Below, piece by piece: positions 35,340 through 58,230 of a DNA stretch of 64,000 bases. How positions within the stretch are numbered: the first letter of the stretch is position 1; each line of letters opens with the position of its first letter. The notes below the pieces were generated by a model. The model made no database searches and had not been told where the DNA came from. It saw only the letters and a list, made by a program, of their open reading frames with translations. Source of the DNA: an uncultured Sphingomonadaceae bacterium (GTDB taxonomy: Bacteria > Pseudomonadota > Alphaproteobacteria > Sphingomonadales > Sphingomonadaceae). The stretch lies in NCBI GenBank assembly GCA_964245585.1, contig CAXTMX010000005.1:23-64022 (forward strand), written 5' to 3'. Position numbers and translations under genes: made by a program.

Positions 35340-35811
35340 CTTTAGCCACCCGCGATGGTGCGTGGAGTGATGATCTATCCTCGGCAACGCGAACGAACGC
35401 GAGACGTGCGCAGATGACTATGATCCGCATAAGAGAGGCCGCGCGGTGACTCGACTACCGCACCGACTATCATGCGGCCAGACGTCTTGCCGTCAGCTCG
35501 GATAGGAGCAATCAGTTGCGATATCTTTGGTGTGCGAGTCTATGCGTTCCCCACGATCGCGGGCGGCATTTCATCGTTGGCAAAAATCACATCGTTCGTC
35601 ATGCCCGCACGATTGAACGACGCATTTCAGAGGCGCTTGAAAGCCACCTTCACACCGAAACGGATGCACTTCAAAATTGTTGCGCGCGGTTACGAGTTGC
35701 AGCCGGCTATGCAATGAGATGCGACCGGGTTATGCGTCGGTGATGGGGCAACGTGTTCTGACGGGGGCGGGCATGAGACATTCAGGAAGCGCGTCCAGGG
35801 GAGAGTGGAAC

Positions 35812-38800
35812 GTGCTACGGATGCTATGGGTAGCAGTCGCCACGCTGTTGGTCTTCTTCGCAAATGCAGCCCCTGCGGAGGCCGCGCCACCTATGTGGCA
35901 AGCGTGGGCTCCCGAGTGGTACTATAACTATCTTTGGAAACTTGGCTCGACCTGGCCCCCGGTGGAGCCCGCCTTCTCAACGCCGGACGCCTCTTGTGCA
36001 AGTGCTCTAAGTTGGGAATACAACAATCAGGACAGCTCTGCGGCGACCTATACCGTCGGTCCGTGGGAAGAAGCGATATGGATCCAGTACGCGCCGAGCG
36101 GCGTGCGCGAGACAGTCGCGGGCCGTCGATGCTCAATCAACAGAGCTGATGGCACTCCTGGTGACTTGGGGTATGATGGCTGGAACGGTTTGAAACAGAT
36201 TGTTCTCATACCGTTTTGCAGCAATGGCGAGACACTGGGTATCGTTGAAGGTAGCCCAGTTTGTTCGGCTGTAGTCCCCCCTGATAGCCAAGACTGCGAG
36301 TGCGTACCTGGAGATACGCCTGTTAGCGGACCGCCTGAAGTTTCGGTAGGTAACCCCATACTGGTTGATACCGGTACTAAGACCGCAGAAGAGACCGATT
36401 ATCGGTCAGCAGACGGTTTGCTGGAGGTGAAGCGCGAGTATAAGAGCCGGCCGCGCAATCCTATTTACATGCCTTTCCCGCTTGAGATTCCTGGCTTTTC
36501 CACTCAATGGCACGGCCTGCTTCCGGGTATGTTGGATATTGAAACGATCGTCAACGGATTTGGAGAGCTAGATTACCTAGCTTTTCAGTCGTCAGATGGT
36601 TCGGTTCGCCGTTTCTATGCCAACAGCGCGACGGACTATGTCTATACGAAATCCGATCAGACGCGATTGAACGTGACGATGGTGAGCACGCCAACGATAG
36701 GGCGGCCGGATTTCTACAAGGCGCCTGCCGATACCACCAGCACCGGCGAGGTCCGACTTCAGTTCGCAAATGGAAAGTATATACTTTTCCGACGAGCTGG
36801 GGACTATGACGCAGCAAACAAGCGGCGAGTTCTTGTTCCCGTCGAGCAGGGCGAACCTGGTGGCTACAAGCGGTGGTTCGATTATCCCGACGCAGGGATT
36901 TACCCTAACCGAATAAGGGACAGCTTCGGACGCCAGCTTATCTTGACCTGGACCGAGCTCGGCTGGTCGCACAACACGGTGCGCGGAGCGCGAAAGGGGC
37001 CCAACCAGTCGACAGCGCCAGTCGGGTTCACGAAGGAGTTCGGCATTTCGGCAATCGCTTTGCCTGATGGTACGACGCTCAACTACACCTATGGGGCGAT
37101 CGACCCCTCCGGCTATCTCGGCCGACTGGAGACCATGACGCGGAAGAACGCGAGCGCGACAACTCTCTGGGGGCGGTCATACTTGCACGAGGATACCCGT
37201 TTTCCGGCGGCAATCACAGGGATCGTCGATCAGAATGGGGCCCGCCTGTCCACTTATAGTTACGACGAATATGGACGAGCCACGCTGTCCAAGCGTGCGG
37301 GTGGGGTAGGGCAATATCAAATCACTTATTCAGCCCCCAACACCGACTCCACTCCTCAAACCCGGGCCGTCACTAATCCGCTAGGTCTGACCGACACCTA
37401 CTCTTATGTCGGCTGGAATGCGGGTGGCGTGAGTCTGCAAACGAACCCTCGTCGGCTTCTCTCGATCGACGGGGCCGCCACCGCATCGGTTCCCGTCCGG
37501 TCGCGTAGCTTCGCGTACACTACACAGGGCCAGCTTAAATCGTTCACCGACGCAAAGGGGAATGTGACGAGCCAGGTGGTCGATTCGGCTAAGTTTCGCC
37601 CGAACAGCGTTACGAATGCCGGCACCGTATCGCAGAGCATAACTTGGGATCCTAATTTTGACCTTCCAGCTCAAATCCTGCTCACAGGAAAGCTCGCGAC
37701 GAGTTTCACTTACGATAGTTCGGGTCAGCTTTTGACCCTCAGCCGGGTGGACAAGACCACTGCAGGAAACGGCACGACCAGGACGACGACCTATACCTGG
37801 GGAACGGGTGGTCGCCTGATGTCGATCAATGGCCCTCGCAATCCCGCTGCCTATGGCGGGGTGGATGATCTGACGACGTTCACATATGATCCACAGGGCA
37901 ATCGGCTGACGATGACGAATGCGCTGGGCAAGGTGACTAACTATTCGGGATACGACGCCAACGGCAATCCAGGCCTCGTGACTGATCCCAACGGTATCAA
38001 GACAGCCTTCACTTACGACGGACTGGGTCGGGTGAAGACGATCACGGTCAAGCACCCTACCACCGTGGCGCTCGATGCGGTGACTACTCTTGACTATGAC
38101 GTAGAGGGCCGCGTTATCGGCTTAACCCGTCCCGCCGCCGCGAAGTTGAACTTCGACTATGACCTCGCGGGCCGGCTTCTCGCTATTCGCTCGGACGACG
38201 GTGAGCGGATCGACTACACCTATGACGGAATGAACGACGTACTGAGCGAAACGGTGAAGCGAACCAACGGCACGCAGTCGCGCGCCATCACTCGCACGTT
38301 CGACGAGCTCGGGCGAATGTTGACGCAGACGCTTGGGCCGAGTCGGACGACGACGTGGTCATACGACAAGAACGGCAATCGGACACAGGTGACGACCCCG
38401 CGCGCCAATGCCTCAACTCAAGCGTTCGATGCGCTTGATCGCTTGACGACTGTAGCGGCGCCCGCTGCCGGCACGACAACCAACGCTTACGACAGCCAAA
38501 ACAACATCGCTTCATTCACCGACGCCAAGACGTTCCAGACAACCTACACGCGCAACGGGTTTGGCGACATCATCAAGGAAGTGTCACCCGATCGAGGAGC
38601 GACGAGCTATACGTATGATGATGGCGGTGATCTTAAGACGATGACCGACGGCCGCGGCCAGGTAGTCACCTTTAACCGCGATATCCTCGGCCGAATCACG
38701 AGCAAAGTTCCGACGGGCCTTACAGCGCAGACGGTGACCTACACGTGGGATACGGGCGGACTCGCGGGCAGCTACGGGGTTGGGCGTGTTGGCAAGATCG

Positions 38801-40485
38801 TAGATGGATCGGGCACGACGACGTTCCAATACGATCATCGCGGCAACATGCTGGTGATACAGCAGGCCATTGGTACAACCTCTGCGGCGCAGCTGATTTA
38901 CGCCTACGATCTTGGCGATCGCGTGACCCAGATCACCTATCCGTCGGGTCGAATCGTCCAGTATGGCCGCGACAGCAAGGGCCGGGTGAACCTTGTGCAG
39001 ACGAAGGCGTCGGCGTCAGTCGGGACTTGGACGTCGATCGCAAGCGGGCTTACTTATGAGCCGTTCGGCGCCGTCACCTCGATCACTCTCGGCAACGGCC
39101 TGAAGGCTACGAACGACTGGGGCAACGATGGCCGACTGGCGACGCGGCGGCTGCAGCGCGTGTCCAACGGGACCAATCTGTCCCTGCTGACCTACGGCTA
39201 CGACAACGACGATAACATCATCAGCATCACAGACGGCGTCACCTCGAGCCAGAGCCAAACCTATGCCTATGACGCGGCGGGCCGGGTGAACCGCATCGAC
39301 ACCGCGAGCGGCACGTACAAGCGTACTGACTACACCTACGACGCCAACGGCAACCGTCAGCAGGAACAGCGCCGGACGCTTGCGACCGATGCGACGCCGG
39401 CGCAGACCGATGCATATAGTTATGCGACTACCTCAAACCGTCTGAGCAACGTGGCGATCCCCGCGGGCAACCGCGCGATCACGTATGATGGGCGAGGAAA
39501 CATGAAAGGTGAGACGCGTCCGAGCAGCGTCACGGTCACTCAGACCTACGACGGTTATGGCCGCCTAACCGGCTATAGCCGGACCGGCACGAGTGCATTG
39601 TCGTTCACATACAACGGTCGTGATGACAGAGTGACGATGGTGATCGGCACAGTGACGCGCCGGTTCATCTATGATCCCGACGGTCGGGTGATGGGCGAGT
39701 ATGGCAACTCGGCCACGGACGTAAAGGCTGAGTTTATCTGGCAGCTACCAGTGGTTGCCAACGATAACGACTTTGGCGGAGACGATGGACTCAATGGCTA
39801 CGCGCCGCTTGCGGTGGCGACGCCGACTACGGCCGGTGCGATACAGATTAACTGGGTGCACGGCAGCCATCTCGGAGTGCCGCTGGTGACAACGGACAGC
39901 GCCGGTAACGCGGCGACGACGCCCAACGACTACTTCGCACCCGGGTTTCCAGGCCAGAGCAAGATCCTCGCCGACCTCTACTACAATCGCTACCGCGACT
40001 ACGATCCCACTATCGGACGCTACATTCAGGCCGACCCCATAGGCCTCGATGGTGGGACAAATCTCTATGTGTATGTCGCAAATAATCCGATACGGTGGAC
40101 CGATCCCATGGGGTTGTTCATCCCGTTGGTCATACCTGCCGCAGAGGGCGCTGCGGAGGGGATCGCCGCGCTCTGTCTGCGGTTTCCTGCGCAGTGTGCC
40201 GCTACGATCAACGCTGGTGCGGCCATCGTTTCAGCGTGCATCGGCGGCGGCGAGGACAGGTGCGAAAAGCAAAAGGAAGATGATGAGTTTGAGTGTAATC
40301 AGTGGAACGTATACACCAACCATCAGGGTTACAGTCGAAGAGAGGGGTATCGTATATGCCTCAGTACAGCAGCAACTAGATACGCCGAGTGTAGATCTAG
40401 GGGAATGAATCCTGCTAACATCACCACACCCTTGTTCCTGCCAACTAGACGACGTGGCATCCCAGATCCGTCACGAGGCAGGTAG
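35812..40485 (+). CDS. Rhs/YD-repeat polymorphic toxin with Sec signal peptide, currently carrying C-terminal tip A
   Basis: GTG 35812 follows RBS GGGGAG and gives [24 protein letters not shown]|. It has a VGNPI motif, many YD repeats and the core end [46 protein letters not shown], then a Cys-rich tip. No PAAR motif seen. Confidence 0.95.
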
Positions 40486-40489
40486 CAGG

Positions 40490-40768
40490 ATGGAAGATTT
40501 GTATATCTCACGTCACATGTTGTTCCTTAAAGGCGAGGAATATCATAAAACCGTGATTTATATACAAAAGCCTATAGAGCGAACAGATGGCGGTCATACT
40601 GCACGAGTGGTTTTTACTGAAGTTAGTAAGTATGATGCAAATATAAAGGGAGCAGATAGTTTGAACGCTATTGAATGTGCGATATCGTACATCAACAGCG
40701 TTTGTAAGGATAGTACAGAGCCTAGATTCTACTGGGAAGAAGGTTATCCTTTCATTGGATCTAATTGA
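40490..40768 (+). CDS. Putative immunity protein for Rhs tip A (DUF6968-like GxDSxxA pattern)
   Basis: AT-rich 92-aa ORF starting 4 nt after the toxin stop; IKGADSLNAIECA. Family assignment is tentative. Confidence 0.75.
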   Translation: MEDLYISRHMLFLKGEEYHKTVIYIQKPIERTDGGHTARVVFTEVSKYDANIKGADSLNAIECAISYINSVCKDSTEPRFYWEEGYPFIGSN

Positions 40769-41389
40769 CGACGCCTTGTCGGCTTAACATGGGATCCTGC
40801 TCATCTTCTCGTTGATCCGGGCACCTGCTGCCGTTGTGCAAGCTACTGCCGATCTGGTGACGCTCTTTTTTGCACAGTAGCCGACTTGGAGGGCGGTCAG
40901 GAGCGTTTGCAAGATAAAGGCAGCGCCTCCTGGCGGCTGCTAAGTGGTTGTCTGCACGTCGGAATATAGCGAGGCATGCGTCACGGCGACGGAGGCTCCC
41001 GGCGTGATGTTGGAGGTGCCGCGCTGGCAACCAGTTGAATCGGCGCGGCAATAGCAGGAGGCAGCCACGAGACTCTCCTGTCGGGGCTCCTGCCGGATCG
41101 CCGATGACGATCGCCAGGCCAGGAGCGCGGCGGAGGCAGGGCGACGGAGCGGCTGGAATATGCCCACACCCTATGCGGCGCGCCGCGAGGCGTAAGTGTC
41201 TGGCCTGCAATGCCAAAACCCGTAAACAAGGCTAGGCCACGATCGCATTGCAACGCAAGACACCGCTAACCCATTGATCTTGTGAGGAGCGGCGGTTCGC
41301 TGCCACCCTGCTGACAGAGCTGCTGAACGGGTCCGCCACGGGGAGCGGCACGGCCGTTCCCCATCGTCGTTCCGTGCTGATCCTCGGGC

Positions 41390-41770
41390 CTACCGGATGA
41401 TGCTCTCGATCTGGCGCTTGGTGAGGAACGCGTCGAGCAGGGTCTTGACGACCTGCTTGTCGGCGTCGGGGAGGTGCTCGACGGCCTGGAACTGGCGGAG
41501 CAGCTCGCGGTCGCTGACGCGGGCGGCGGCGGCTTCGTCGCTGGCGCCATCGAGAAGATAATCGCTGGTGGTGTCGAGCGCGTCGGCGAGGCGCCTGAGG
41601 GTATCGCCGCCGGGGCGCGACGTGCCGCGCTCGAACCGGCCGATGTGGGTGTAGTGGAGGCCGGCCTTCTGCCCAAGCTGGGTCTGGGAGAGGTCGCGCG
41701 CCTTGCGCAGCGTGCGCAGCCGCTGCGAGAACCCCTCGCCCACATCGTTCTCCAGCACCCTTGCCGCCAT
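41390..41770 (-). CDS. XRE-family HTH regulator
   Basis: FSQRLRTLRKARDLSQTQLGQKAGLHYTHIGRFERG..P..TLRRLADAL; divergent from the primase gene. Confidence 0.92.
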   Translation of the reverse strand: MAARVLENDVGEGFSQRLRTLRKARDLSQTQLGQKAGLHYTHIGRFERGTSRPGGDTLRRLADALDTTSDYLLDGASDEAAAARVSDRELLRQFQAVEHLPDADKQVVKTLLDAFLTKRQIESIIR

Positions 41771-41920
41771 CACCATCTCCAATGGAGTGATGCTGCCGGA
41801 TGTGGAGGGGGAATGCCATGCCTGCATGCTCGATAGCCTGTCCTGACTGCTTGACCGAATACAGCGCAGCGGCTAGCGGATCAAGCATCCTTGCTGCATG
41901 AAAAATATCTGGGGACAGCG

Positions 41921-44899
41921 ATGGCGCGCATGGCGGACGCGGAGATCGAGCGGCTGAAGAACGAGGTGAGCCTGGTGCGCCTCGTCGAATCGGCGGGCGT
42001 GGCGCTCCAGCGGCGCGGTCAGGAGATGGTGGGCCGCTGCCCGTTCCATGCCGACGACACGCCGTCGCTGTCGGTCAACGCGGCGAAGAACCTGTTCCGC
42101 TGCTTCGGCTGCGACGCGGGCGGCGGGCCGATCGACTGGGTGATGAAGCGCGAGGGGGTGAGCTTCCGCCACGCGGTCGAGCTGCTGCGCGACGGCGCCG
42201 CGCTGGAGCCACCCGCGTCGTCGCCAGCACGATCCACCGTGCGGCGGCTTGCCCCGCCGATGAGCCTCGATGGCGACGACCGGGCGCTGCTCGATCAGGT
42301 GGTGGGCTATTATCACGAGACGCTGAAGCGGTCGCCCGAGGCGCTGGCCTATCTGAAGGCGCGCGGCCTGGTCCACCCCGAGCTGATCGAGCGGTTCCGG
42401 CTCGGCTATGCGGACCGCACGCTGGGCCTCAGGCTGCCCGAGAAGAACCGCAAGGCTGGCGCGGAGGTGCGCGGGCGGCTGGAGCGGATCGGGCTCTACC
42501 GGGCGAGCGGCCACGAGCACTTCCGGGGCTCGCTGGTGGTGCCGGTGATCGACGCGCACGGCCATGTCGTCGAGGTCTATGGGCGCAAGACCAGGGACGA
42601 TCTGCGCCCCGGAACGCCCATGCACCTCTACCTTCCTGGGCCGCATCGCGGCGTGTGGAACCTCGACGGGATCGCCGGATCGGGGGGCGAGGTGATCCTG
42701 TGCGAGGCGCTGATCGACGCCATGACCTTCTGGGTAGCCGGCTATCGCAACGTCACCGCCGCCTATGGCACGAGCGGCTTTACCGACGACCATCTGGCGG
42801 CGTTCCGCGCGCACGATATCGCCCGCGTGCTGGTCGCCTACGACCGCGACGCCGCCGGCGACAAGGGCGCCGCTGCGGTCGCCGAGCAGCTCGCGCCGCA
42901 TGGGATCGGGGTCTATCGCGTGAACTTCCCGAAGGGGATGGATGCGAACGGCTACGCGCTGAACGTGACTCCGCCCGCCAAGAGTCTGGGGGCGTTGCTG
43001 CGCGCCGCCGAGTGGATGGCGGGCACCGAATCCCGTCCGCGCGCGGTGCCGTTCGACGACGAATCCGAGCCCCATATCGTCGTCGAAACCCTTCCTCTCT
43101 CAGCCGCCGAGCCGCTGTCCGAGCCCAGCCACGCCGGCCCGATCGCGCCGTCGCCACCGCCTCCCGTAGCGGCCGAGATCGGCGAGCGGGAGGTGGTGAT
43201 CCAGCTCGGCGACCGCACCTGGCGCGCGCGCGGGCTGGCCCGCAACGCGTCGCCGGAGGCGATGAAGATCAACCTCATGGTGCGGCGCGGAGAGGCGTTC
43301 CACGTCGACGGACTGGACCTGCTCAGCGCCAAGAACCGCGCCGCGTTCGTGGCGGAAGCCGCGCTCGAGCTGGGCCTGCCGCCGGAGGCGGTGAAGCGCG
43401 ATATCGGGCAGGTGCTCTTGAAGCTCGAGTCGGTGCAGGAGGCGATGCTGCGCGAGACAGCGCCGACCCCCGGCGTCGTGATCAGCGCCGGCGACGAGGC
43501 CGCGGCGATGGCCTGGCTCCGCTCCCCCGACCTGCTCGACCGGATCGCCGCCGACATCGCCGCTATGGGCGTGATCGGCGAGGCCGAGAACGCGCTCACC
43601 GTCTATCTGGCGGCGCTCAGCCGCAAGCTCGATCGGCCGCTCGCGGTGCTGATCCAGTCGACCAGCGCCGCCGGCAAGAGCGCGCTGATGGACGCGGTGC
43701 TCGACCTGGTGCCGGAGGAGGAGCGGGTCGCCTACTCGGCGATGACCGGGCAGAGCCTGTTCTATCTGGGCGAGGCGGACCTCCGCCACAAGGCGCTCGC
43801 CATCGCCGAGGAGGAGGGCGCGCGCCATGCGTCCTATGCGCTGAAGCTGCTTCAGAGCCAGGGCGCGATCACCATCGCGTCGACGGGCAAGGACCCGGCG
43901 ACGGGCAAGCTGGTGACGCAGGACTATCGGGTCGAGGGACCGGTCGCGCTGATGCTGACCACGACCGCGATCGACCTCGACGAGGAGCTGAGCAACCGCT
44001 GCCTGGTGCTGACGATCGACGAGAGTCGCGAGCAGACCCGCGCGATCCATGCCCGCCAGCGTTACGAGGAGACGCTCGCCGGCCTCGCCGAGCGCGAGAA
44101 CGGCGCCGCGATCCGCGCGCTGCATCACAATGCGCAGCGGCTGATCAGGCCGGTGAAGGTGGTCAACCCGTTCGCGGAAGCCCTGACGTTCCTCGACGAC
44201 AAGACCCGCACGCGCCGCGACCACCGCAAATATCTTGGGCTGATCCGCGCCGTCGCGCTGCTCCACCAGCATCAGCGGCCGACCCGCGAGCTGACCCGTC
44301 CCGGCATGGCGCCGCTCGCCTATATCGAGGCGACGCTGGACGATATCGCGGCCGCCAACCGGCTCGCCCATGCGGTGCTCGGCACCACGCTCGACGAGCT
44401 GCCGCCGCAGACCCGGACGCTGCTCCACTTGGTCCGCGATCACGTCGCCGCGCGTGCTACGGCCGAGGGCGTCCAGCCCCGCGACGTGCGGTTCACCCGC
44501 CGCGAGGTCCGGGAGGCGACAGGCTGGGGCGACACCCAGCTCAAGCTCCACCTGCACCGCCTGGAGGAGCTTGAATATCTGCTGGTGCGCCGCGACGGCA
44601 CCCGGTTCGTCTACGAGCTGGCCTGGGGCGGCGAAGGCGAGGCGGGCGCGCCGTTCGTGATGGGGCTGATCAACGTCGAGCGGCTGCGCCAACATCATTA
44701 TGACCGCGAACGGTCGGGGGTGGCGGCCGATCGGCCGCCCTCTGGTCGGGCCGAGATCGGGGTCCGGTCGGTGGGCAGTCACGCCCCCGAATCGCCAAGA
44801 ACCGCAGGGATCGTGCGGCTTCCCGCGCACATCGCCGCACCGCGCCCTGAATCCGTATCCCAGGTCGCTGGCGAACGCCGGTCATACGCGAACGGCTGA
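41921..44899 (+). CDS. DnaG-type primase (CHC2 Zn finger + Toprim) fused to a P-loop NTPase domain
   Basis: CPFHADDTPS...CFGC, LCEALIDA, YDRD.AG, Walker A-like QSTSAAGKS and Walker B-like LAIAEEEG. Confidence 0.9.
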   Translation: MARMADAEIERLKNEVSLVRLVESAGVALQRRGQEMVGRCPFHADDTPSLSVNAAKNLFRCFGCDAGGGPIDWVMKREGVSFRHAVELLRDGAALEPPASSPARSTVRRLAPPMSLDGDDRALLDQVVGYYHETLKRSPEALAYLKARGLVHPELIERFRLGYADRTLGLRLPEKNRKAGAEVRGRLERIGLYRASGHEHFRGSLVVPVIDAHGHVVEVYGRKTRDDLRPGTPMHLYLPGPHRGVWNLDGIAGSGGEVILCEALIDAMTFWVAGYRNVTAAYGTSGFTDDHLAAFRAHDIARVLVAYDRDAAGDKGAAAVAEQLAPHGIGVYRVNFPKGMDANGYALNVTPPAKSLGALLRAAEWMAGTESRPRAVPFDDESEPHIVVETLPLSAAEPLSEPSHAGPIAPSPPPPVAAEIGEREVVIQLGDRTWRARGLARNASPEAMKINLMVRRGEAFHVDGLDLLSAKNRAAFVAEAALELGLPPEAVKRDIGQVLLKLESVQEAMLRETAPTPGVVISAGDEAAAMAWLRSPDLLDRIAADIAAMGVIGEAENALTVYLAALSRKLDRPLAVLIQSTSAAGKSALMDAVLDLVPEEERVAYSAMTGQSLFYLGEADLRHKALAIAEEEGARHASYALKLLQSQGAITIASTGKDPATGKLVTQDYRVEGPVALMLTTTAIDLDEELSNRCLVLTIDESREQTRAIHARQRYEETLAGLAERENGAAIRALHHNAQRLIRPVKVVNPFAEALTFLDDKTRTRRDHRKYLGLIRAVALLHQHQRPTRELTRPGMAPLAYIEATLDDIAAANRLAHAVLGTTLDELPPQTRTLLHLVRDHVAARATAEGVQPRDVRFTRREVREATGWGDTQLKLHLHRLEELEYLLVRRDGTRFVYELAWGGEGEAGAPFVMGLINVERLRQHHYDRERSGVAADRPPSGRAEIGVRSVGSHAPESPRTAGIVRLPAHIAAPRPESVSQVAGERRSYANG

Positions 44900-45915
44900 T
44901 GCCGCGTCGTGCGCTGCCGCCGCTGCCGGGACGCCATGATCCCGACAGCCTCGCCTCGCACATGGAGCGGTTCCTGTCGGCGCTGGCGGTGCTCAACTAC
45001 TCGCCCGCGACGATCGAGGACCGACGCTACTGCCTCGCCACGTTCATCCTGTGGTGCGGCGAACGTGGCCTGGAGCGCCCGACGCAGGTGACGAAGCCGA
45101 TCCTGGAGCGGTTCCAGCGCCACCTCTACTATCACCGCAAGCCCAACGGCGACCCGTTGACGTTCCGCACGCAGGCGGCGCGCATGGTCCCGCTGCGCGC
45201 CTGGTTCAGATGGCTGGCGCGCGAGAATCACATCCTGTCCAACCCGGCCTCCGAGCTGGAGCTGCCCCGCCCCGAGCGTCGCCTGCCGGCGGTGGTGCTG
45301 ACGGCGGAGGAGGCCGAGGCGGTGATGGCCGTTCCCGACGTGGGCGCGCCGCTGGGGCTGCGCGACCGCGCCATGCTGGAGCTGCTCTACGCCACCGCGA
45401 TCCGACGCAGCGAGCTGATCGCGCTCAAGCTGTTCGACGTGGACTATGCCCGTGCCGCGCTCATCGTCCGGCAGGGCAAGGGCAACAAGGACCGGGTGGT
45501 GCCGCTGGGCGAGCGGGCGAAGGCCTGGCTTACCGCCTATCGCGACCGCGTGCGCCCCGGTCTGGTCGCAGGCCGCGATCCGGTCACGCTGTTCCTGAGC
45601 CGTGACGGGCGCCCGCTCGAACCCAAGCGCCTGTCCGAGAAGGTGCGCGGCTATGTGGAGGCCGCCGGCATCGGCAAGCCGGGCTCCTGCCACCTGCTGC
45701 GCCACACCGCCGCCACGCTGATGCTGGAGGGCGGCGCCGACATCCGGTTCATCCAGGCTCTGCTCGGCCACGAGAGCCTGGAGACGACGCAGATCTACAC
45801 CCGCGTCTCCATCACCAAGCTGGCCGAGATCCACGCCGCCACGCACCCCGGCGCCCGCCTGGTGCGCGACCGCGCCCTGCTCGATACAGCACTTGCCCTC
45901 GACGGCGAGGACTGA
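44899..45915 (+). CDS. XerC/XerD-like tyrosine recombinase
   Basis: RDRAMLELLYATAIRRSEL, GKGNKDR, HLLRH, LLGH and TTQIY. TGATG coupling to the primase gene. Confidence 0.95.
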   Translation: MPRRALPPLPGRHDPDSLASHMERFLSALAVLNYSPATIEDRRYCLATFILWCGERGLERPTQVTKPILERFQRHLYYHRKPNGDPLTFRTQAARMVPLRAWFRWLARENHILSNPASELELPRPERRLPAVVLTAEEAEAVMAVPDVGAPLGLRDRAMLELLYATAIRRSELIALKLFDVDYARAALIVRQGKGNKDRVVPLGERAKAWLTAYRDRVRPGLVAGRDPVTLFLSRDGRPLEPKRLSEKVRGYVEAAGIGKPGSCHLLRHTAATLMLEGGADIRFIQALLGHESLETTQIYTRVSITKLAEIHAATHPGARLVRDRALLDTALALDGED

Positions 45916-46109
45916 CCTTCCTCTCTCAGCCGCTTGCCCGCGCGCGCCAGCGCGCGCATGATGGCACTTGATCTTTGACAGCCGCGTCGCGGCACCGAAA
46001 ACCGCCTCAAGGCGATCCGGCGCTCGCCCGAACCGCTTCTCCCGCGTGTGCGCGTAAGCCGCTGCACCGCCTCGGGAAAAGCGCATCACTATGGCCGGAC
46101 CACATCAAG

Positions 46110-46134
46110 CGGATCAGTTGTCGCAAATAATCCG
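46110..46134. other. attP-like junction with imperfect inverted repeat
   Basis: CGGATCAGT-TGTCGCA-AATAATCCG. The arms match 7/9 as an inverted repeat, or 9/11 with a 3-nt spacer. The junction joins the element's right end to its left end. Confidence 0.7.
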
Positions 46135-46530
46135 ATACGGTGGACCGATCCCATGGGGTTGTTCATCCCGTTGGTCATACCTGCCGCAGAGGGCGCTGCG
46201 GAGGGGATCGCCGCGCTCTGTCTGCGGTTTCCTGCGCAGTGTGCCGCTACGATCAACGCTGGTGCGGCCATCGTTTCAGCGTGCATCGGCGGCGGCGAGG
46301 ACAGGTGCGAAAAGCAAAAGGAAGATGATGAGTTTGAGTGTAATCAGTGGAACGTATACACCAACCATCAGGGTTACAGTCGAAGAGAGGGGTATCGTAT
46401 ATGCCTCAGTACAGCAGCAACTAGATACGCCGAGTGTAGATCTAGGGGAATGAATCCTGCTAACATCACCACACCCTTGTTCCTGCCAACTAGACGACGT
46501 GGCATCCCAGATCCGTCACGAGGCAGGTAG
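46119..46530 (+). pseudogene. Orphan copy of Rhs tip A (no core)
   Basis: [14 protein letters not shown] + tip A, preceded by element DNA instead of the Rhs core. Confidence 0.85.
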
Positions 46531-46534
46531 CAGG

Positions 46535-46813
46535 ATGGAAGATTTGTATATCTCACGTCACATGTTGTTCCTTAAAGGCGAGGAATATCATAAAACCGTG
46601 ATTTATATACAAAAGCCTATAGAGCGAACAGATGGCGGTCATACTGCACGAGTGGTTTTTACTGAAGTTAGTAAGTATGATGCAAATATAAAGGGAGCAG
46701 ATAGTTTGAACGCTATTGAATGTGCGATATCGTACATCAACAGCGTTTGTAAGGATAGTACAGAGCCTAGATTCTACTGGGAAGAAGGTTATCCTTTCAT
46801 TGGATCTAATTGA
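46535..46813 (+). CDS. Putative immunity protein for tip A, copy 2
   Basis: Same translation as 40490-40768. Confidence 0.75.
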   Translation: MEDLYISRHMLFLKGEEYHKTVIYIQKPIERTDGGHTARVVFTEVSKYDANIKGADSLNAIECAISYINSVCKDSTEPRFYWEEGYPFIGSN

Positions 46814-47434
46814 CGACGCCTTGTCGGCTTAACATGGGATCCTGCTCATCTTCTCGTTGATCCGGGCACCTGCTGCCGTTGTGCAAGCTACTGCCGATCT
46901 GGTGACGCTCTTTTTTGCACAGTAGCCGACTTGGAGGGCGGTCAGGAGCGTTTGCAAGATAAAGGCAGCGCCTCCTGGCGGCTGCTAAGTGGTTGTCTGC
47001 ACGTCGGAATATAGCGAGGCATGCGTCACGGCGACGGAGGCTCCCGGCGTGATGTTGGAGGTGCCGCGCTGGCAACCAGTTGAATCGGCGCGGCAATAGC
47101 AGGAGGCAGCCACGAGACTCTCCTGTCGGGGCTCCTGCCGGATCGCCGATGACGATCGCCAGGCCAGGAGCGCGGCGGAGGCAGGGCGACGGAGCGGCTG
47201 GAATATGCCCACACCCTATGCGGCGCGCCGCGAGGCGTAAGTGTCTGGCCTGCAATGCCAAAACCCGTAAACAAGGCTAGGCCACGATCGCATTGCAACG
47301 CAAGACACCGCTAACCCATTGATCTTGTGAGGAGCGGCGGTTCGCTGCCACCCTGCTGACAGAGCTGCTGAACGGGTCCGCCACGGGGAGCGGCACGGCC
47401 GTTCCCCATCGTCGTTCCGTGCTGATCCTCGGGC

Positions 47435-47815
47435 CTACCGGATGATGCTCTCGATCTGGCGCTTGGTGAGGAACGCGTCGAGCAGGGTCTTGACGACCTG
47501 CTTGTCGGCGTCGGGGAGGTGCTCGACGGCCTGGAACTGGCGGAGCAGCTCGCGGTCGCTGACGCGGGCGGCGGCGGCTTCGTCGCTGGCGCCATCGAGA
47601 AGATAATCGCTGGTGGTGTCGAGCGCGTCGGCGAGGCGCCTGAGGGTATCGCCGCCGGGGCGCGACGTGCCGCGCTCGAACCGGCCGATGTGGGTGTAGT
47701 GGAGGCCGGCCTTCTGCCCAAGCTGGGTCTGGGAGAGGTCGCGCGCCTTGCGCAGCGTGCGCAGCCGCTGCGAGAACCCCTCGCCCACATCGTTCTCCAG
47801 CACCCTTGCCGCCAT
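47435..47815 (-). CDS. XRE-family HTH regulator, copy 2
   Basis: Same translation as copy 1. Confidence 0.92.
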   Translation of the reverse strand: MAARVLENDVGEGFSQRLRTLRKARDLSQTQLGQKAGLHYTHIGRFERGTSRPGGDTLRRLADALDTTSDYLLDGASDEAAAARVSDRELLRQFQAVEHLPDADKQVVKTLLDAFLTKRQIESIIR

Positions 47816-47965
47816 CACCATCTCCAATGGAGTGATGCTGCCGGATGTGGAGGGGGAATGCCATGCCTGCATGCTCGATAGCCTGTCCTGACTGCTTGAC
47901 CGAATACAGCGCAGCGGCTAGCGGATCAAGCATCCTTGCTGCATGAAAAATATCTGGGGACAGCG

Positions 47966-50944
47966 ATGGCGCGCATGGCGGACGCGGAGATCGAGCGGCT
48001 GAAGAACGAGGTGAGCCTGGTGCGCCTCGTCGAATCGGCGGGCGTGGCGCTCCAGCGGCGCGGTCAGGAGATGGTGGGCCGCTGCCCGTTCCATGCCGAC
48101 GACACGCCGTCGCTGTCGGTCAACGCGGCGAAGAACCTGTTCCGCTGCTTCGGCTGCGACGCGGGCGGCGGGCCGATCGACTGGGTGATGAAGCGCGAGG
48201 GGGTGAGCTTCCGCCACGCGGTCGAGCTGCTGCGCGACGGCGCCGCGCTGGAGCCACCCGCGTCGTCGCCAGCACGATCCACCGTGCGGCGGCTTGCCCC
48301 GCCGATGAGCCTCGATGGCGACGACCGGGCGCTGCTCGATCAGGTGGTGGGCTATTATCACGAGACGCTGAAGCGGTCGCCCGAGGCGCTGGCCTATCTG
48401 AAGGCGCGCGGCCTGGTCCACCCCGAGCTGATCGAGCGGTTCCGGCTCGGCTATGCGGACCGCACGCTGGGCCTCAGGCTGCCCGAGAAGAACCGCAAGG
48501 CTGGCGCGGAGGTGCGCGGGCGGCTGGAGCGGATCGGGCTCTACCGGGCGAGCGGCCACGAGCACTTCCGGGGCTCGCTGGTGGTGCCGGTGATCGACGC
48601 GCACGGCCATGTCGTCGAGGTCTATGGGCGCAAGACCAGGGACGATCTGCGCCCCGGAACGCCCATGCACCTCTACCTTCCTGGGCCGCATCGCGGCGTG
48701 TGGAACCTCGACGGGATCGCCGGATCGGGGGGCGAGGTGATCCTGTGCGAGGCGCTGATCGACGCCATGACCTTCTGGGTAGCCGGCTATCGCAACGTCA
48801 CCGCCGCCTATGGCACGAGCGGCTTTACCGACGACCATCTGGCGGCGTTCCGCGCGCACGATATCGCCCGCGTGCTGGTCGCCTACGACCGCGACGCCGC
48901 CGGCGACAAGGGCGCCGCTGCGGTCGCCGAGCAGCTCGCGCCGCATGGGATCGGGGTCTATCGCGTGAACTTCCCGAAGGGGATGGATGCGAACGGCTAC
49001 GCGCTGAACGTGACTCCGCCCGCCAAGAGTCTGGGGGCGTTGCTGCGCGCCGCCGAGTGGATGGCGGGCACCGAATCCCGTCCGCGCGCGGTGCCGTTCG
49101 ACGACGAATCCGAGCCCCATATCGTCGTCGAAACCCTTCCTCTCTCAGCCGCCGAGCCGCTGTCCGAGCCCAGCCACGCCGGCCCGATCGCGCCGTCGCC
49201 ACCGCCTCCCGTAGCGGCCGAGATCGGCGAGCGGGAGGTGGTGATCCAGCTCGGCGACCGCACCTGGCGCGCGCGCGGGCTGGCCCGCAACGCGTCGCCG
49301 GAGGCGATGAAGATCAACCTCATGGTGCGGCGCGGAGAGGCGTTCCACGTCGACGGACTGGACCTGCTCAGCGCCAAGAACCGCGCCGCGTTCGTGGCGG
49401 AAGCCGCGCTCGAGCTGGGCCTGCCGCCGGAGGCGGTGAAGCGCGATATCGGGCAGGTGCTCTTGAAGCTCGAGTCGGTGCAGGAGGCGATGCTGCGCGA
49501 GACAGCGCCGACCCCCGGCGTCGTGATCAGCGCCGGCGACGAGGCCGCGGCGATGGCCTGGCTCCGCTCCCCCGACCTGCTCGACCGGATCGCCGCCGAC
49601 ATCGCCGCTATGGGCGTGATCGGCGAGGCCGAGAACGCGCTCACCGTCTATCTGGCGGCGCTCAGCCGCAAGCTCGATCGGCCGCTCGCGGTGCTGATCC
49701 AGTCGACCAGCGCCGCCGGCAAGAGCGCGCTGATGGACGCGGTGCTCGACCTGGTGCCGGAGGAGGAGCGGGTCGCCTACTCGGCGATGACCGGGCAGAG
49801 CCTGTTCTATCTGGGCGAGGCGGACCTCCGCCACAAGGCGCTCGCCATCGCCGAGGAGGAGGGCGCGCGCCATGCGTCCTATGCGCTGAAGCTGCTTCAG
49901 AGCCAGGGCGCGATCACCATCGCGTCGACGGGCAAGGACCCGGCGACGGGCAAGCTGGTGACGCAGGACTATCGGGTCGAGGGACCGGTCGCGCTGATGC
50001 TGACCACGACCGCGATCGACCTCGACGAGGAGCTGAGCAACCGCTGCCTGGTGCTGACGATCGACGAGAGTCGCGAGCAGACCCGCGCGATCCATGCCCG
50101 CCAGCGTTACGAGGAGACGCTCGCCGGCCTCGCCGAGCGCGAGAACGGCGCCGCGATCCGCGCGCTGCATCACAATGCGCAGCGGCTGATCAGGCCGGTG
50201 AAGGTGGTCAACCCGTTCGCGGAAGCCCTGACGTTCCTCGACGACAAGACCCGCACGCGCCGCGACCACCGCAAATATCTTGGGCTGATCCGCGCCGTCG
50301 CGCTGCTCCACCAGCATCAGCGGCCGACCCGCGAGCTGACCCGTCCCGGCATGGCGCCGCTCGCCTATATCGAGGCGACGCTGGACGATATCGCGGCCGC
50401 CAACCGGCTCGCCCATGCGGTGCTCGGCACCACGCTCGACGAGCTGCCGCCGCAGACCCGGACGCTGCTCCACTTGGTCCGCGATCACGTCGCCGCGCGT
50501 GCTACGGCCGAGGGCGTCCAGCCCCGCGACGTGCGGTTCACCCGCCGCGAGGTCCGGGAGGCGACAGGCTGGGGCGACACCCAGCTCAAGCTCCACCTGC
50601 ACCGCCTGGAGGAGCTTGAATATCTGCTGGTGCGCCGCGACGGCACCCGGTTCGTCTACGAGCTGGCCTGGGGCGGCGAAGGCGAGGCGGGCGCGCCGTT
50701 CGTGATGGGGCTGATCAACGTCGAGCGGCTGCGCCAACATCATTATGACCGCGAACGGTCGGGGGTGGCGGCCGATCGGCCGCCCTCTGGTCGGGCCGAG
50801 ATCGGGGTCCGGTCGGTGGGCAGTCACGCCCCCGAATCGCCAAGAACCGCAGGGATCGTGCGGCTTCCCGCGCACATCGCCGCACCGCGCCCTGAATCCG
50901 TATCCCAGGTCGCTGGCGAACGCCGGTCATACGCGAACGGCTGA
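47966..50944 (+). CDS. Primase/P-loop fusion, copy 2
   Basis: Same translation as copy 1. Confidence 0.9.
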   Translation: MARMADAEIERLKNEVSLVRLVESAGVALQRRGQEMVGRCPFHADDTPSLSVNAAKNLFRCFGCDAGGGPIDWVMKREGVSFRHAVELLRDGAALEPPASSPARSTVRRLAPPMSLDGDDRALLDQVVGYYHETLKRSPEALAYLKARGLVHPELIERFRLGYADRTLGLRLPEKNRKAGAEVRGRLERIGLYRASGHEHFRGSLVVPVIDAHGHVVEVYGRKTRDDLRPGTPMHLYLPGPHRGVWNLDGIAGSGGEVILCEALIDAMTFWVAGYRNVTAAYGTSGFTDDHLAAFRAHDIARVLVAYDRDAAGDKGAAAVAEQLAPHGIGVYRVNFPKGMDANGYALNVTPPAKSLGALLRAAEWMAGTESRPRAVPFDDESEPHIVVETLPLSAAEPLSEPSHAGPIAPSPPPPVAAEIGEREVVIQLGDRTWRARGLARNASPEAMKINLMVRRGEAFHVDGLDLLSAKNRAAFVAEAALELGLPPEAVKRDIGQVLLKLESVQEAMLRETAPTPGVVISAGDEAAAMAWLRSPDLLDRIAADIAAMGVIGEAENALTVYLAALSRKLDRPLAVLIQSTSAAGKSALMDAVLDLVPEEERVAYSAMTGQSLFYLGEADLRHKALAIAEEEGARHASYALKLLQSQGAITIASTGKDPATGKLVTQDYRVEGPVALMLTTTAIDLDEELSNRCLVLTIDESREQTRAIHARQRYEETLAGLAERENGAAIRALHHNAQRLIRPVKVVNPFAEALTFLDDKTRTRRDHRKYLGLIRAVALLHQHQRPTRELTRPGMAPLAYIEATLDDIAAANRLAHAVLGTTLDELPPQTRTLLHLVRDHVAARATAEGVQPRDVRFTRREVREATGWGDTQLKLHLHRLEELEYLLVRRDGTRFVYELAWGGEGEAGAPFVMGLINVERLRQHHYDRERSGVAADRPPSGRAEIGVRSVGSHAPESPRTAGIVRLPAHIAAPRPESVSQVAGERRSYANG

Positions 50945-51960
50945 TGCCGCGTCGTGCGCTGCCGCCGCTGCCGGGACGCCATGATCCCGACAGCCTCGCC
51001 TCGCACATGGAGCGGTTCCTGTCGGCGCTGGCGGTGCTCAACTACTCGCCCGCGACGATCGAGGACCGACGCTACTGCCTCGCCACGTTCATCCTGTGGT
51101 GCGGCGAACGTGGCCTGGAGCGCCCGACGCAGGTGACGAAGCCGATCCTGGAGCGGTTCCAGCGCCACCTCTACTATCACCGCAAGCCCAACGGCGACCC
51201 GTTGACGTTCCGCACGCAGGCGGCGCGCATGGTCCCGCTGCGCGCCTGGTTCAGATGGCTGGCGCGCGAGAATCACATCCTGTCCAACCCGGCCTCCGAG
51301 CTGGAGCTGCCCCGCCCCGAGCGTCGCCTGCCGGCGGTGGTGCTGACGGCGGAGGAGGCCGAGGCGGTGATGGCCGTTCCCGACGTGGGCGCGCCGCTGG
51401 GGCTGCGCGACCGCGCCATGCTGGAGCTGCTCTACGCCACCGCGATCCGACGCAGCGAGCTGATCGCGCTCAAGCTGTTCGACGTGGACTATGCCCGTGC
51501 CGCGCTCATCGTCCGGCAGGGCAAGGGCAACAAGGACCGGGTGGTGCCGCTGGGCGAGCGGGCGAAGGCCTGGCTTACCGCCTATCGCGACCGCGTGCGC
51601 CCCGGTCTGGTCGCAGGCCGCGATCCGGTCACGCTGTTCCTGAGCCGTGACGGGCGCCCGCTCGAACCCAAGCGCCTGTCCGAGAAGGTGCGCGGCTATG
51701 TGGAGGCCGCCGGCATCGGCAAGCCGGGCTCCTGCCACCTGCTGCGCCACACCGCCGCCACGCTGATGCTGGAGGGCGGCGCCGACATCCGGTTCATCCA
51801 GGCTCTGCTCGGCCACGAGAGCCTGGAGACGACGCAGATCTACACCCGCGTCTCCATCACCAAGCTGGCCGAGATCCACGCCGCCACGCACCCCGGCGCC
51901 CGCCTGGTGCGCGACCGCGCCCTGCTCGATACAGCACTTGCCCTCGACGGCGAGGACTGA
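50944..51960 (+). CDS. XerC/XerD-like tyrosine recombinase, copy 2
   Basis: Same translation as copy 1. Confidence 0.95.
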   Translation: MPRRALPPLPGRHDPDSLASHMERFLSALAVLNYSPATIEDRRYCLATFILWCGERGLERPTQVTKPILERFQRHLYYHRKPNGDPLTFRTQAARMVPLRAWFRWLARENHILSNPASELELPRPERRLPAVVLTAEEAEAVMAVPDVGAPLGLRDRAMLELLYATAIRRSELIALKLFDVDYARAALIVRQGKGNKDRVVPLGERAKAWLTAYRDRVRPGLVAGRDPVTLFLSRDGRPLEPKRLSEKVRGYVEAAGIGKPGSCHLLRHTAATLMLEGGADIRFIQALLGHESLETTQIYTRVSITKLAEIHAATHPGARLVRDRALLDTALALDGED

Positions 51961-52163
51961 CCTTCCTCTCTCAGCCGCTTGCCCGCGCGCGCCAGCGCGC
52001 GCATGATGGCACTTGATCTTTGACAGCCGCGTCGCGGCACCGAAAACCGCCTCAAGGCGATCCGGCGCTCGCCCGAACCGCTTCTCCCGCGTGTGCGCGT
52101 AAGCCGCTGCACCGCCTCGGGAAAAGCGCATCACTATGGCCGGACCACATCAAGCGGATCAGT

Positions 52164-52554
52164 TGTTGGGAATAACCCAATACGATTTACTGACCCGGCG
52201 GGGTTGCAGTCGCGGATTGTGATACCTGTCCCTTGGTGGTATCCGCCGGTTCCTCCGCTTTTGAACCAAGGAAACAAGCCTCGCAATAACAGCGCGGACG
52301 CTAATAAGGCGTGGCGTGATTACAAAGCGCGCTATCAGGAGCCGCCACCTCCCAACCTGGACCCATGTGAACAACTGGCCTGGGAGATTTGGAAAGAAAA
52401 GCGTCTGATAGATGATCGGTTGGCTTGGGACGCGAGATATCTACCGGGCAGGCACGATATTGCCATTGACCAGTCTCGCAAGCGCATTAAAAATCTAGAG
52501 GATGAAATGAAAGTACTTGGGTGTACGTGTCCACCGCATGACTCAAAGTATTGA
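52164..52554 (+). pseudogene. Displaced/orphan Rhs C-terminal tip B
   Basis: VGNNPIRFTDPAGL followed by a different tip (..YKARYQEPPPPNLDPCEQLAW..WDARYLPGRH..). No Rhs core lies directly upstream. Confidence 0.88.
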
Positions 52555-52906
52555 CGCTATGCTTGAAGAAAATTCTATACCTACGCCTTTAACCTTTGAG
52601 CAAATTGCAAGAATGCAGGCCCGTTACAGTCATTTACCATCTTACGAGCCAGGTAGAGCATTTGGCGTCTGTGATCCGATGACATACGTTAACGCAGATG
52701 GGGATGCCCTGATCCATATCGCTGCTACAGCTGGAGATACGGAAACTGTGGAGCTGTTACTCAAAGCTGGTATCGATCCGAATATAAAGGGGGACATGAG
52801 TTATACGCCGCTCCATTATGCAACAGATGCTAAGCATTCGGGTATTGTCGAATTGCTTGTCCGCTATGGCGCTATCAAAACAAAGACTGAGTTTGATGAT
52901 ATGTAA
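52538..52906 (+). CDS. Ankyrin-repeat protein, putative immunity for tip B
   Basis: GDALIHIAATAGDTETVELLLKAGIDPNIKGDMSYTPLHYA...IVELLVRYGA; overlaps the tip B stop. Confidence 0.85.
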   Translation: MTQSIDAMLEENSIPTPLTFEQIARMQARYSHLPSYEPGRAFGVCDPMTYVNADGDALIHIAATAGDTETVELLLKAGIDPNIKGDMSYTPLHYATDAKHSGIVELLVRYGAIKTKTEFDDM

Positions 52907-54029: not shown

Positions 54030-55088
54030 ATGCGAGCGACGCAGAGCGAGGAGAGGAGCGCGGAGATTGCAGACCCGACAAACCCGGTCGCGGCGATCTT
54101 GAAAGGCAGGGAGGTGAGCGCGCTGGACGACGACGCCGCACTTCTCAGTTTCTATTCTACGCGCTCGCGGGCGTCCATTCTAACCGAAGATCCCGCGTAT
54201 TCTCAAAAGCCCGAGATCGTAAATCGAACCGCCGAGGCGTCGGCTGACGTGCGCAGTGGCGAGCTGGTCTTCCTCGAAGCCATTCCCAAAGAACGTCTGT
54301 TGGGTGAGAAGGGAATACGCAGTTGCTTCGCCGTCACGCCCCCGTGCTTAGTCGACTTCGACGTCGCTTGGTTCTGCAGTCTCTGCCTGGCGGCGCGCAG
54401 CCTCGAGGACGTCAACGAGATCCTCCACATGCTCTACGACGGTCTCGGGGCGAACGCCTGCTTGCTCGCGCAGTTTGGCGCCAATCGGCGCCGGCCGACA
54501 TTTCAGTTTGTGATCGATGGGCCGCCAGGACTGGCGGCGGAGATCACGTCCCGGCGTTTGACTGACGACGCAATTATGGTCGCCTGTCAGCAGCGTGTGT
54601 TCGGGTTCCTCTGGTCCGACCTCGAGCGGATCATCGAGATGACCGACAAGCGTCGAGAGACGCTGGCCATCTACGCGGCACACGGTCTCCACGAAGGCTT
54701 CACGATTCCCTTGTCGGTGCCTGGCGAACCGCGTGGCTTCTGCAGCTTCGGTTGGTCGAACCCGCATGATCTCACACTCGACATCATGTCGATCCTCCTC
54801 ATCGCTGCGCCGGCGCTGTTTGAGACGGTCCGACGGCTACGCGGCATGTGGATCGTGAATCGCGAAAAGCTCGAACTGACCCCCCGTCAAATAGACTGCC
54901 TCGTGGGGGTTTCGCGCGGGCTCAACGACATGCAGATCGCGCACGAACTTGGTATCAGCGTGCAGACCGTGCATGATCATCTCGAGGAAGCGCGCAAGCG
55001 TTACGGCGCGCACAAGCGGACCGACCTTCTCGTGAAAGCGATCCGCTCGGGCGAGCTGCCTTGGAGCCGCATCACCAGATCTCAGTAA
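54030..55088 (+). CDS. LuxR-family regulator (autoinducer-binding-like domain + HTH), paralogue 1
   Basis: FLWSDL, HGLHEGFTIP and LTPRQIDCL..GLND.QIAHELGIS..TV..H. Start is uncertain. Confidence 0.88.
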   Translation: MRATQSEERSAEIADPTNPVAAILKGREVSALDDDAALLSFYSTRSRASILTEDPAYSQKPEIVNRTAEASADVRSGELVFLEAIPKERLLGEKGIRSCFAVTPPCLVDFDVAWFCSLCLAARSLEDVNEILHMLYDGLGANACLLAQFGANRRRPTFQFVIDGPPGLAAEITSRRLTDDAIMVACQQRVFGFLWSDLERIIEMTDKRRETLAIYAAHGLHEGFTIPLSVPGEPRGFCSFGWSNPHDLTLDIMSILLIAAPALFETVRRLRGMWIVNREKLELTPRQIDCLVGVSRGLNDMQIAHELGISVQTVHDHLEEARKRYGAHKRTDLLVKAIRSGELPWSRITRSQ

Positions 55089-55325
55089 TGGCCCTCACGG
55101 TCCTTAGGTCGTCAAGGTTTAGTGCTTAGCGATCACTGATGTGCGAGCGTATGCGCACGGGTCTGCACGTATCCGTTCGAGATCCGTTGTCAAACATCTT
55201 CACAGCGTGATGCCGTCGCCTGCACGTTCACCCCTCTTTTTTCGGGAGACGCCACAGAGAAACGAATCGCTTATGTATCTTTAGCCGCCAATGGAGCTTG
55301 CAAGCGGCCAGTCGAGGATGCTGAC

Positions 55326-56441: not shown

Positions 56442-56461
56442 CTTCGAAGCGGATCATCCCC

Positions 56462-57311: not shown

Positions 57312-57553
57312 TCGGTGGTTTCAGGCGCCGGGGCGCCCCCCAGAGCAGACTTGCGCAACAGTTCATGCGCTTCGACGCCGAGTGCGCGGGCGATATCGTC
57401 GACCATGTCGATCGTCGCACCATAGATCGATCGTTCGAGTGCGCTGATATAGGTGCGGTCTATCCCCGCCTCATGCGCCAACGCTTCCTGCGAGAGCCCC
57501 TTCGCATTTCTCATCGTTCGGAGGTTGTGCGCGAACACCAAACGTATATCCAT
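57308..57553 (-). CDS. qseC: XRE HTH regulator, QseC-like
   Basis: MDIRLVFAHNLRTMRNAKGLSQEALAHEAGIDRTYISALER; divergent from the qseM-like gene. Confidence 0.8.
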   Translation of the reverse strand: MDIRLVFAHNLRTMRNAKGLSQEALAHEAGIDRTYISALERSIYGATIDMVDDIARALGVEAHELLRKSALGGAPAPETTD

Positions 57554-57631
57554 AACGGCAAGCGGACGCGCTTGCGATGTATTCCTCCACGGAGTATACT
57601 CGACAAGTGTATTTTTGGATACGGTTCAAAG

Positions 57632-57940: not shown

Positions 57941-58230
57941 CCCAAGGAGCGTAGCGCGGCAAGAGCAACCCATGAGGTCGTTGAGCATCGCGCGCAGGTG
58001 CCTGCTGGTCAGCGCAGAGTTTACGCTACAGCGTTCGCCCTCGGTGGGCTGAGAGCGGGTTCAGCCGAGTTGTGGTTCCTGATCGCTATCGCATCGGTCT
58101 TCGGCATTGCGTTAAGCGCAGCGGCTTGTGTCATCCTTCAGGTAAAGGCCACGTTTCTGCGGCGGGGCGAAAGCACCCCATTGGGGTAACTGCCGCTTCA
58201 TTTGGGCTGAGAAGCTGATTCAGCATTGGC

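Follow-up and report, generated by a model that had tools for sequence, protein, structure and literature searches.

The locus raises the question of how a 6-kb unit came to be joined, in tandem and in frame, to the end of an rhs gene, and which enzyme acting on which sequence would make such a joint. In the window, i.e. the whole stretch of 64,000 nucleotides that was analysed, positions 40074-46121 are repeated exactly at 46119-52166, giving 6048 identical bases with a period of 6045 bp. The 25 bp at 46110-46134, designated J2, form the middle of three in-frame rhs junctions around this repeat.

The tandem repeat and its three junctions

J2 consists of two 9-nt arms around a 7-bp spacer (CGGATCAGT / TGTCGCA / AATAATCCG), with 7 of the 9 arm bases complementary, and the identity of the repeat starts at the first spacer base. 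The original prediction of inverted arms around a spacer at the edge of the repeat is thus confirmed by the exact repeat. Arm complementarity is 3/9 in the left junction (J1), the make-up of which is like that of an empty rhs target when compared with 89 free cores, and 5/9 in the right junction (J3). The spacer of J3 differs from that of J2 at three of the last four bases, and the overlap of the outer junctions is TGT, which is the sole identity common to J1, J2 and J3; both the spacer mismatch and the 3-bp overlap were as predicted. The three TGT triplets lie in one rhs frame, which stays open behind them for 136, 136 and 129 codons, respectively, in agreement with the claim that the site is overlaid on protein-constrained rhs codons. 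J2 is therefore a real, base-exact and in-frame junction of the conserved right end of an element with an Rhs tip.

As judged by a count of all 25-mers in the window, 223 of 63975 (0.35%) have arms at least 7/9 complementary around 7 nt, and hence the J2 palindrome alone is unremarkable; its weight lies in its position at the repeat edge and in its recurrence in homologues. The source genome is a draft of 140 contigs, in the whole of which the 6045-bp unit is found in just these two copies, with one other, distant rhs gene. Each of the public runs covers at most 0.18 of the window stretch, and neither a free circle nor an empty site turned up at this coverage. The tandem is either chromosomal or represents an integrated copy together with a circle, and J2 is a real junction either way.

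The unit comprises an Rhs tip with a putative immunity gene, an RstR-like repressor, a primase, an XerD-like recombinase and a conserved right end (Table 1). The ORF behind tip A had no match in Pfam, NCBIfam or PHROG, and tip B had none in PHROG. The primase has a long C-terminal part with a Walker-A-like motif, as read from the translation. In an alignment of 11 homologues of the recombinase, residues R169, K197, H265, R268, H291 and Y300 are invariant, and residues 21-312 align colinearly to residues 5-289 of XerD (1a0p). Relative to XerD, the protein has about 20 extra N-terminal residues and neither a large insertion nor an N-terminal arm-binding domain, and with the integron integrase model TIGR02249 it scored 118 bits, below the cut-off of 265.

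The right end is 68-83% identical to its homologues in long matches, and includes three direct copies of CCRCNTCRRG (46002, 46067 and 46100) and an inverted CAAGCGG (45930-45936). The CCRCNTCRRG repeats could be accessory binding sites or iterons for the primase. Comparison of the right end with Rfam revealed no structured-RNA match, and a scan for promoters and terminators found nothing above shuffled sequence. CGCGTCRGG repeats resembling CCRCNTCRRG are present in right ends from Ralstonia, Pseudomonas, Paraburkholderia and Enterobacter. Gene pairs resembling toxin-antitoxin modules, as judged by annotation or by reading of the sequence, lie between recombinase and right end in seven other loci (L005, L009, L010, L015, L020, L191 and L203); the window element has no such pair.

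A virB-type secretion cluster immediately precedes the rhs gene, and the upstream region (25425-35339) also includes a tRNA-Val gene (25425-25499) and a second integrase gene (25713-26750). Downstream (54030-61989) are two LuxR, two RovC-like, SLT and ArdC genes, with an imperfect inverted repeat of 59 nt, its arms separated by 24 nt, at 60112-60253 near the ArdC gene. As judged by gene content, these surroundings look like an integrative conjugative element, which could be the carrier of the locus and might also export the Rhs protein.

Table 1. Positions of the junctions, the repeat unit and the genes of the element in the window.
Feature	Position	Strand	Details
rhs, full-length 1602-aa ORF	35677-40485	+	PF05593, TIGR01643, TIGR03696; host core fused in frame to tip A
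J1, left junction, attL-type	40065-40089	+	host left arm CTATGTGTA, spacer TGTCGCA, right arm of tip A
First copy of 6045-bp unit plus shared TGT	40074-46121	+	exact repeat
Putative immunity ORF after tip A	40454-40768	+	assigned by position only
RstR-family HTH repressor	41390-41827	-	NF041951, 83.7 bits (cut-off 80); second copy 47435-47872
CHC2 zinc finger/Toprim primase, 1002 aa	41891-44899	+	PF01807, PF13155; second copy 47936-50944
XerC/D-like tyrosine recombinase, 338 aa	44899-45915	+	NF002331, 431.8 bits (cut-off 371); second copy 50944-51960
Conserved non-coding right end, ~200 bp	45916-46118	+	alignment with homologues
J2 left arm CGGATCAGT	46110-46118	+	from element
J2 spacer TGTCGCA, 7 bp	46119-46125	+	TGT at 46119-46121
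J2 right arm AATAATCCG	46126-46134	+	Asn-Asn-Pro codons, tip A
Detached tip A copy, 136 codons, rhs frame	46120-46530	+	putative immunity ORF 46499-46813 behind
J3, right junction, attR-type	52155-52179	+	element left arm, spacer TGTTGGG, right arm of tip B AATAACCCA
Tip B, 129 codons	52165-52554	+	probable displaced earlier tip
Ankyrin-repeat ORF, putative tip B immunity gene	52517-52906	+	PF00023, PF12796

Junctions in related elements and free rhs cores

Twenty-five loci came from a scan restricted to one genome per species, and the set was enlarged by further searches. Crossover points in homologues had been named in advance as the check that could refute the site; they were not scattered, and the right end meets the Rhs tip at the identical base, followed by TGT, in 23/23 junctions from 19 loci. 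This set omits the contig-end loci L002 and L009 (the genome of the latter being represented by L328), two aberrant junctions of L018, the odd left junction of L020, loci L013 and L014 with another register, and L004, L016, L023 and L025, where no right end was found. The consensus of the element end is CGGRYCWGT, with CGTATTAGT in the sole Parvularculaceae genome. Pairing of the arms is 70% at the register of J2 and 10-46% when slid by one to three columns, and compensatory changes on both sides of the arms were not found within the clade. The tips behind 21 junctions had no blastp match to one another, and the junctions therefore represent separate events, though the backbones are kin. Contigs from unrelated public runs also have the right end running into other tips.

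The same succession of core-tip, element, tip, element and tip is found in complete chromosomes (L012 and, at the VENN motif, Escherichia coli ZYB39), and tandems are present in the window, L011, L012, L017, L191, L204 and ZYB39. At L011 (1476-14476), two backbones 99.9% identical accompany three different tips, and hence backbone and cargo recombine after integration. The two aberrant junctions of L018 (12177 and 12727) comprise a TGA continuing into part of the recombinase gene of the element itself and a TGT continuing into non-rhs DNA with GATCAG/CTGATC symmetry, and they are possible off-target events.

The recombinase was found in 3/401 genomes of the family, 4/401 of the phylum (both counts including the window genome) and 2/231 of a second family. 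A 14-mer pattern of the site matched 63/401 genomes of the order, mostly by chance; among 70 of the 76 matches listed, three were true junctions, two of them already collected. Pattern scans of metagenomes (at least 120 stretches, 80 of them listed) and of viruses (27 loci) gave chance matches, as none matched the right end or the recombinase. A viral scan with the recombinase sequence found nothing and one with the recombinase alignment gave five distant loci, and the phage collection had no match at 1e-50.

The background for the junctions was a set of 89 rhs core ends, taken from 69 loci within the same family; Tyr/Phe and Pro are conserved in it partly by construction, as the core-finding pattern requires them. 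The first spacer triplet of these free cores is TGT in 72/89, CGT in 7, TGC in 7 and CGC in 3, and the TGT entry point is thus available in some four-fifths of rhs cores in the family. Conservation is lowest at spacer positions 3 and 6 and highest in the Asp-Pro codons. In the host, the left half (consensus NTAYGCYTA) does not mirror the right arm (mean 1.9/9 in the 89 free cores). The conserved right arm of the host is thus mirrored by a sequence that the element brings, and the host side has one good arm only. The two arms and spacer originally taken as the site stand on the element side, where the 25 bp are the core of a larger, one-sided end of about 200 bp, and do not describe the host side.

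The right arm is usually AAYGATCCN (Asn-Asp-Pro), with the Asp codon (G at arm position 4) in 20/23 junctions and 82/89 free cores. The Asn-Asn-Pro arm that had been predicted is therefore correct for the window, but it is the minority form, and the Asp form matches the left arm of the element better.

Because TGT is common in free cores, its invariance at the junctions (19/19 loci) is just weakly significant (p 0.013). Spacer positions 4-6 read GCA in 13/23 junctions as against 11/89 free cores, an enrichment of about four-fold; the difference persists per locus (11/19 against 9/69, Fisher p 1.5e-4) and against the other cores of element-bearing genomes (6/33, p 0.004), with all p values here overstated because kin are not fully independent. 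GGG and GGC are the commonest free-core codons at these positions, and plain matching to the majority would therefore not favour GCA. The assumption that the last spacer bases are free is contradicted by this enrichment. A TG...CA spacer opens with TG on both strands, which may reflect a preference for a cleavage context at both ends. No such CA end is seen in the VENN clade (TGTTGAG), in Paraburkholderia or in 10/23 junctions of the same clade.

Left and right spacers were compared in ten pairs, five of which differ (window, L003, L011, L020 and L187) and five of which have identical 7-bp spacers (L006, L009, L010, L012 and L017), and spacer mismatch is thus tolerated as foreseen; L003, with a left site that is the nearest upstream core 12 kb off, and L020, with an atypical left site, are weaker pairs. 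Paralogous cores within a genome have the same spacer in most cases, and the identical pairs were therefore not taken as a preference for homology. Identity to the left of the spacer is zero in 7/8 computed pairs, the left site of the eighth being no core, and to the right it is exactly 3 in 4/8 pairs, 0 in one and 10-15 in three. At L011 the left site has CGT, which means that the reaction may do without even the first T. The window holds the one tandem that is informative on spacer inheritance, and in it the spacer travels with the tip. The spacers of L011 fit either a heteroduplex or a single exchange, those of L012, L017 and ZYB39 are identical, and no clear case of daughters with the spacer staying with the element was found among the tandems examined.

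Related recombinases from the plasmid and E. coli collections are found downstream of rhs or cdiA-like genes, with the gene order unchanged. In Ralstonia elements, which keep the GCGTC+3+9 spacing, end in GCCAACTAT and cross over before Tyr-Ala-Tyr-Val, the left arm CCAAC faces the GTTG of the Tyr-Val codons, and the arm therefore changes with the target. Their spacer base 0 varies (C, T or A), and 5/6 of the spacers end in CA. Pseudomonas-type junctions read TGG-N-[GC]CA in 3/3 cases. In enterobacterial elements the crossover is at the CdiA VENN motif, the tandem in the complete E. coli ZYB39 genome being one example; the spacer of this clade lacks the CA end, and its symmetry suits a length of 6 bp. 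In two elements from Caulobacteraceae the crossover lies at Phe-Leu-Gln-Thr-Asp-Pro, and a mirror arm is not clearly recognisable. In a recombinase tree of 32 rows, from which loci with no match of more than 250 residues are omitted, the junction types occupy branches of their own, most of them with good support. This is an association by descent of junction type and recombinase clade, not statistical co-evolution.

Orphan VENN tips behind a different short left sequence ending in GT are present at L191 (17836 and 26230) and L421 (14551), which suggests that another family member left these junctions. In three distant relatives (L184, 9399-9523; L205, 10153-10277; L416, 3229-3353), arms lie in long hairpins behind the recombinase gene; we take the arms to resemble dif and the hairpins to be as in CTX-type sites, and they are a possible link between the element family and integrative mobile elements exploiting Xer (IMEX).

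A candidate attachment site and the alternatives

Taken together, J2 is probably the core of an attP at which the element's own XerD-like recombinase would recombine with the Tyr-Val-x-Asn-Asp/Asn-Pro codons of rhs in the manner of IntDOT. A circle carrying tip, immunity gene and backbone, closed at a J2-type junction and perhaps replicated by its own primase, would pair as double-stranded DNA with an rhs gene. The first strand exchange would occur at the left edge of the 7-bp overlap, where TGT, the third base of the Tyr codon and the first two of Val, would give 2-3 bp of identity; the middle spacer base, the Val wobble position, would be free. The second exchange, at the right edge, would be favoured by the CA end of the spacer and, as with IntDOT, would not need identity. 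The incoming tip would thereby become the one joined to the core, with the old tip pushed behind the element; excision would restore tip B to the core. Both partners bring rhs codons as the right arm, and hence the left product is an empty-type target and the right product an attP type. As J1 is like an empty target and J3 like J2, integration regenerates its substrate types, further copies can be accepted, and the frequent tandems are accounted for.

This assignment is supported by the exact repeat edges at TGT with all junctions in frame, by the same crossover base in 23/23 junctions with unmatched tips, and by zero identity left of the spacer at core left sites together with 70% arm pairing at the register. 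The GCA/CA bias, the intact catalytic residues, the clade-linked junction types and the IntDOT precedent add to it. It is weakened by the frequency of TGT in free cores and the lack of both-sided arm changes within the clade, by a host half-site without a palindromic left arm for binding of the fourth monomer, and by the absence of the CA bias from the VENN clade, Paraburkholderia and 10/23 junctions. Furthermore, a heteroduplex from two exchanges predicts spacers linked to the element, whereas the window spacer follows the tip.

The last point would be met if the same enzyme made a single strand exchange at the TGT end of the same site, the Holliday junction being resolved by replication as in CTX or integron reactions, perhaps with the element's own primase. 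Such a reaction appears less likely, though it would suit the non-palindromic host left arm, the RstR-family repressor and the primase, as well as the dif-like hairpins of the three distant relatives. The left arm is, moreover, touched by a long-range inverted repeat of 7 bp, for which 20 rows show one compensatory change, and a matching inverted repeat is present in 4/6 Ralstonia right ends checked. However, folding of 45915-46140 is not beyond that of shuffled sequences (z -1.3 and -1.0), no long-range stem covers the spacer or the right arm, and the right arm, being part of the variable tip, has nothing in the element to pair with. The colinearity of the recombinase with XerD and its low score with the integron model also speak against this reaction, and the CA bias suggests that the far spacer end is read or cleaved. 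The integron and CTX analogy originally drawn therefore fits less well than IntDOT.

That a conventional reaction with full identity made the junctions, and that mismatched pairs arose later by homologous recombination or tip replacement within arrays, is improbable. The five pairs with identical spacers and the reshuffled array at L011 are in keeping with it, but identity in half of the pairs is expected from the spacers shared by paralogous cores. Moreover, the window units are identical over 6048 bases and thus recent, yet J2 and J3 differ at three of four positions, and four pairs stop matching after exactly TGT. Least credible is a junction made by host enzymes (XerCD, or RecA-type recombination on microhomology) or by misassembly, for although assembly of a draft genome (140 contigs) can unroll a loop into an exact 6-kb tandem, and homologous recombination was proposed for tip displacement in the accessible part of Jackson et al. 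(PMC2935791), an unrolled loop still needs a junction of right end and tip A in the DNA, whether circle or tandem, the same junction recurs in 19 loci, in complete chromosomes and in contigs of unrelated public runs with other tips, there is no core homology upstream of TGT, and the site lies about 200 bp from the element's intact recombinase gene and changes with the recombinase clade.

An IntDOT-like attP at J2 would offer a site-specific route for the exchange of Rhs and CdiA tips, which has so far been explained mainly by homologous recombination. It would also add a case of a tyrosine recombinase with short, one-sided identity, in which codon constraint provides the conservation of the target. 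The chances seem evenly balanced that these are small self-replicating, integron-like 'tip changers', in which each clade of Xer-like recombinases has acquired an element-side arm that mirrors the constrained boundary codons of its own class of toxin, needs no more than 2-3 bp of identity, regenerates the target with each insertion and thus switches the toxin reversibly. In such a family, the boundary codons by class would be YVxNDP, TYAYV and LQTDP in Rhs, and VENN and GAK in CdiA-like proteins.

Comparison with known systems

Lambda Int and Cre are the canonical full-identity systems, in which the partners share the whole overlap; the element differs from them in that its spacers differ in 5/10 pairs. 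Integrons resemble it in their array logic, as only the first tip is fused to the core, but IntI carries an integron-specific insertion, whereas the recombinase of the element has no insertion of this type. IMEX of the CTX/TLC type share with the element an RstR-family repressor, Xer-like chemistry, short homology at one end, and a usable target that is regenerated after integration and leads to tandem arrays. However, CTX-type IMEX use host XerCD, a dif target and a folded single-stranded attP (according to the part of PMC5357621 available), while the element has its own recombinase and targets rhs codons.

By gene content, the window unit is a PhRepA-like element. PhRepA of Photorhabdus luminescens, as described in the accessible portions of PMC6267812, has adjacent primase and integrase genes, a Cro/C1-type HTH gene and tandem clusters, in which one copy is associated with a complete large haemagglutinin gene and the others with truncated remnants; the supplement names VENN threads, and the element is described as a phage-related repeat. 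The likeness, compared by description, thus lies in the primase-integrase pair, the HTH gene and the tandems behind a polymorphic toxin gene. PhRepA differs in its haemagglutinin-gene target, and it carries a SymE gene. The portions of its text and supplements that were available mention no attachment site, crossover point or tip-swap logic, and 'integration site' had no matches in the supplements.

The pushing of a resident tip downstream by an incoming one is shared with Rhs C-terminal displacement and orphan modules (parts of PMC2935791, PMC4927057 and PMC5727410). The detached tips of the window differ from orphan toxin-immunity modules in having no core sequence upstream of TGT. Jackson et al., in the part available, knew of no integrase associated with Rhs (PMC2935791). 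The portions seen of PMC5727410, PMC4927057, PMC3482391 and bioRxiv 10.64898/2026.07.13.738213 mention, without a site, that integrases or Xer recombinases occur in the neighbourhood of rhs, cdi or poly-immunity loci; the bioRxiv text refers to Martinkus et al. 2026 (Current Biology 36:176) on Xer-dependent systems that accompany Rhs poly-immunity arrays. For Ralstonia, an element bearing Toprim is mentioned in the available part of PMC11481896, and those of PMC3150448 and PMC5131962 contain nothing relevant to the site. The literature searched, to which most subscription papers do not belong, contains no description of the attachment site.

The closest parallel is IntDOT, for which the excerpts of PMC2817482 and PMC2034462 give a crossover region with 2 identical bp at its left side, the other 5 bp, to the right, being mismatched. 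Both systems have a tyrosine recombinase, a 7-bp region and a short identity on the left (2 bp for IntDOT and 3 bp for the element). The IntDOT family differs in its N-terminal arm-binding domain, the enzyme of the element being XerD-sized and its target the in-frame codons of a toxin. On this comparison, the site most likely works like that of IntDOT, in an element that stands outside the IntDOT family, the integrons and the IMEX.
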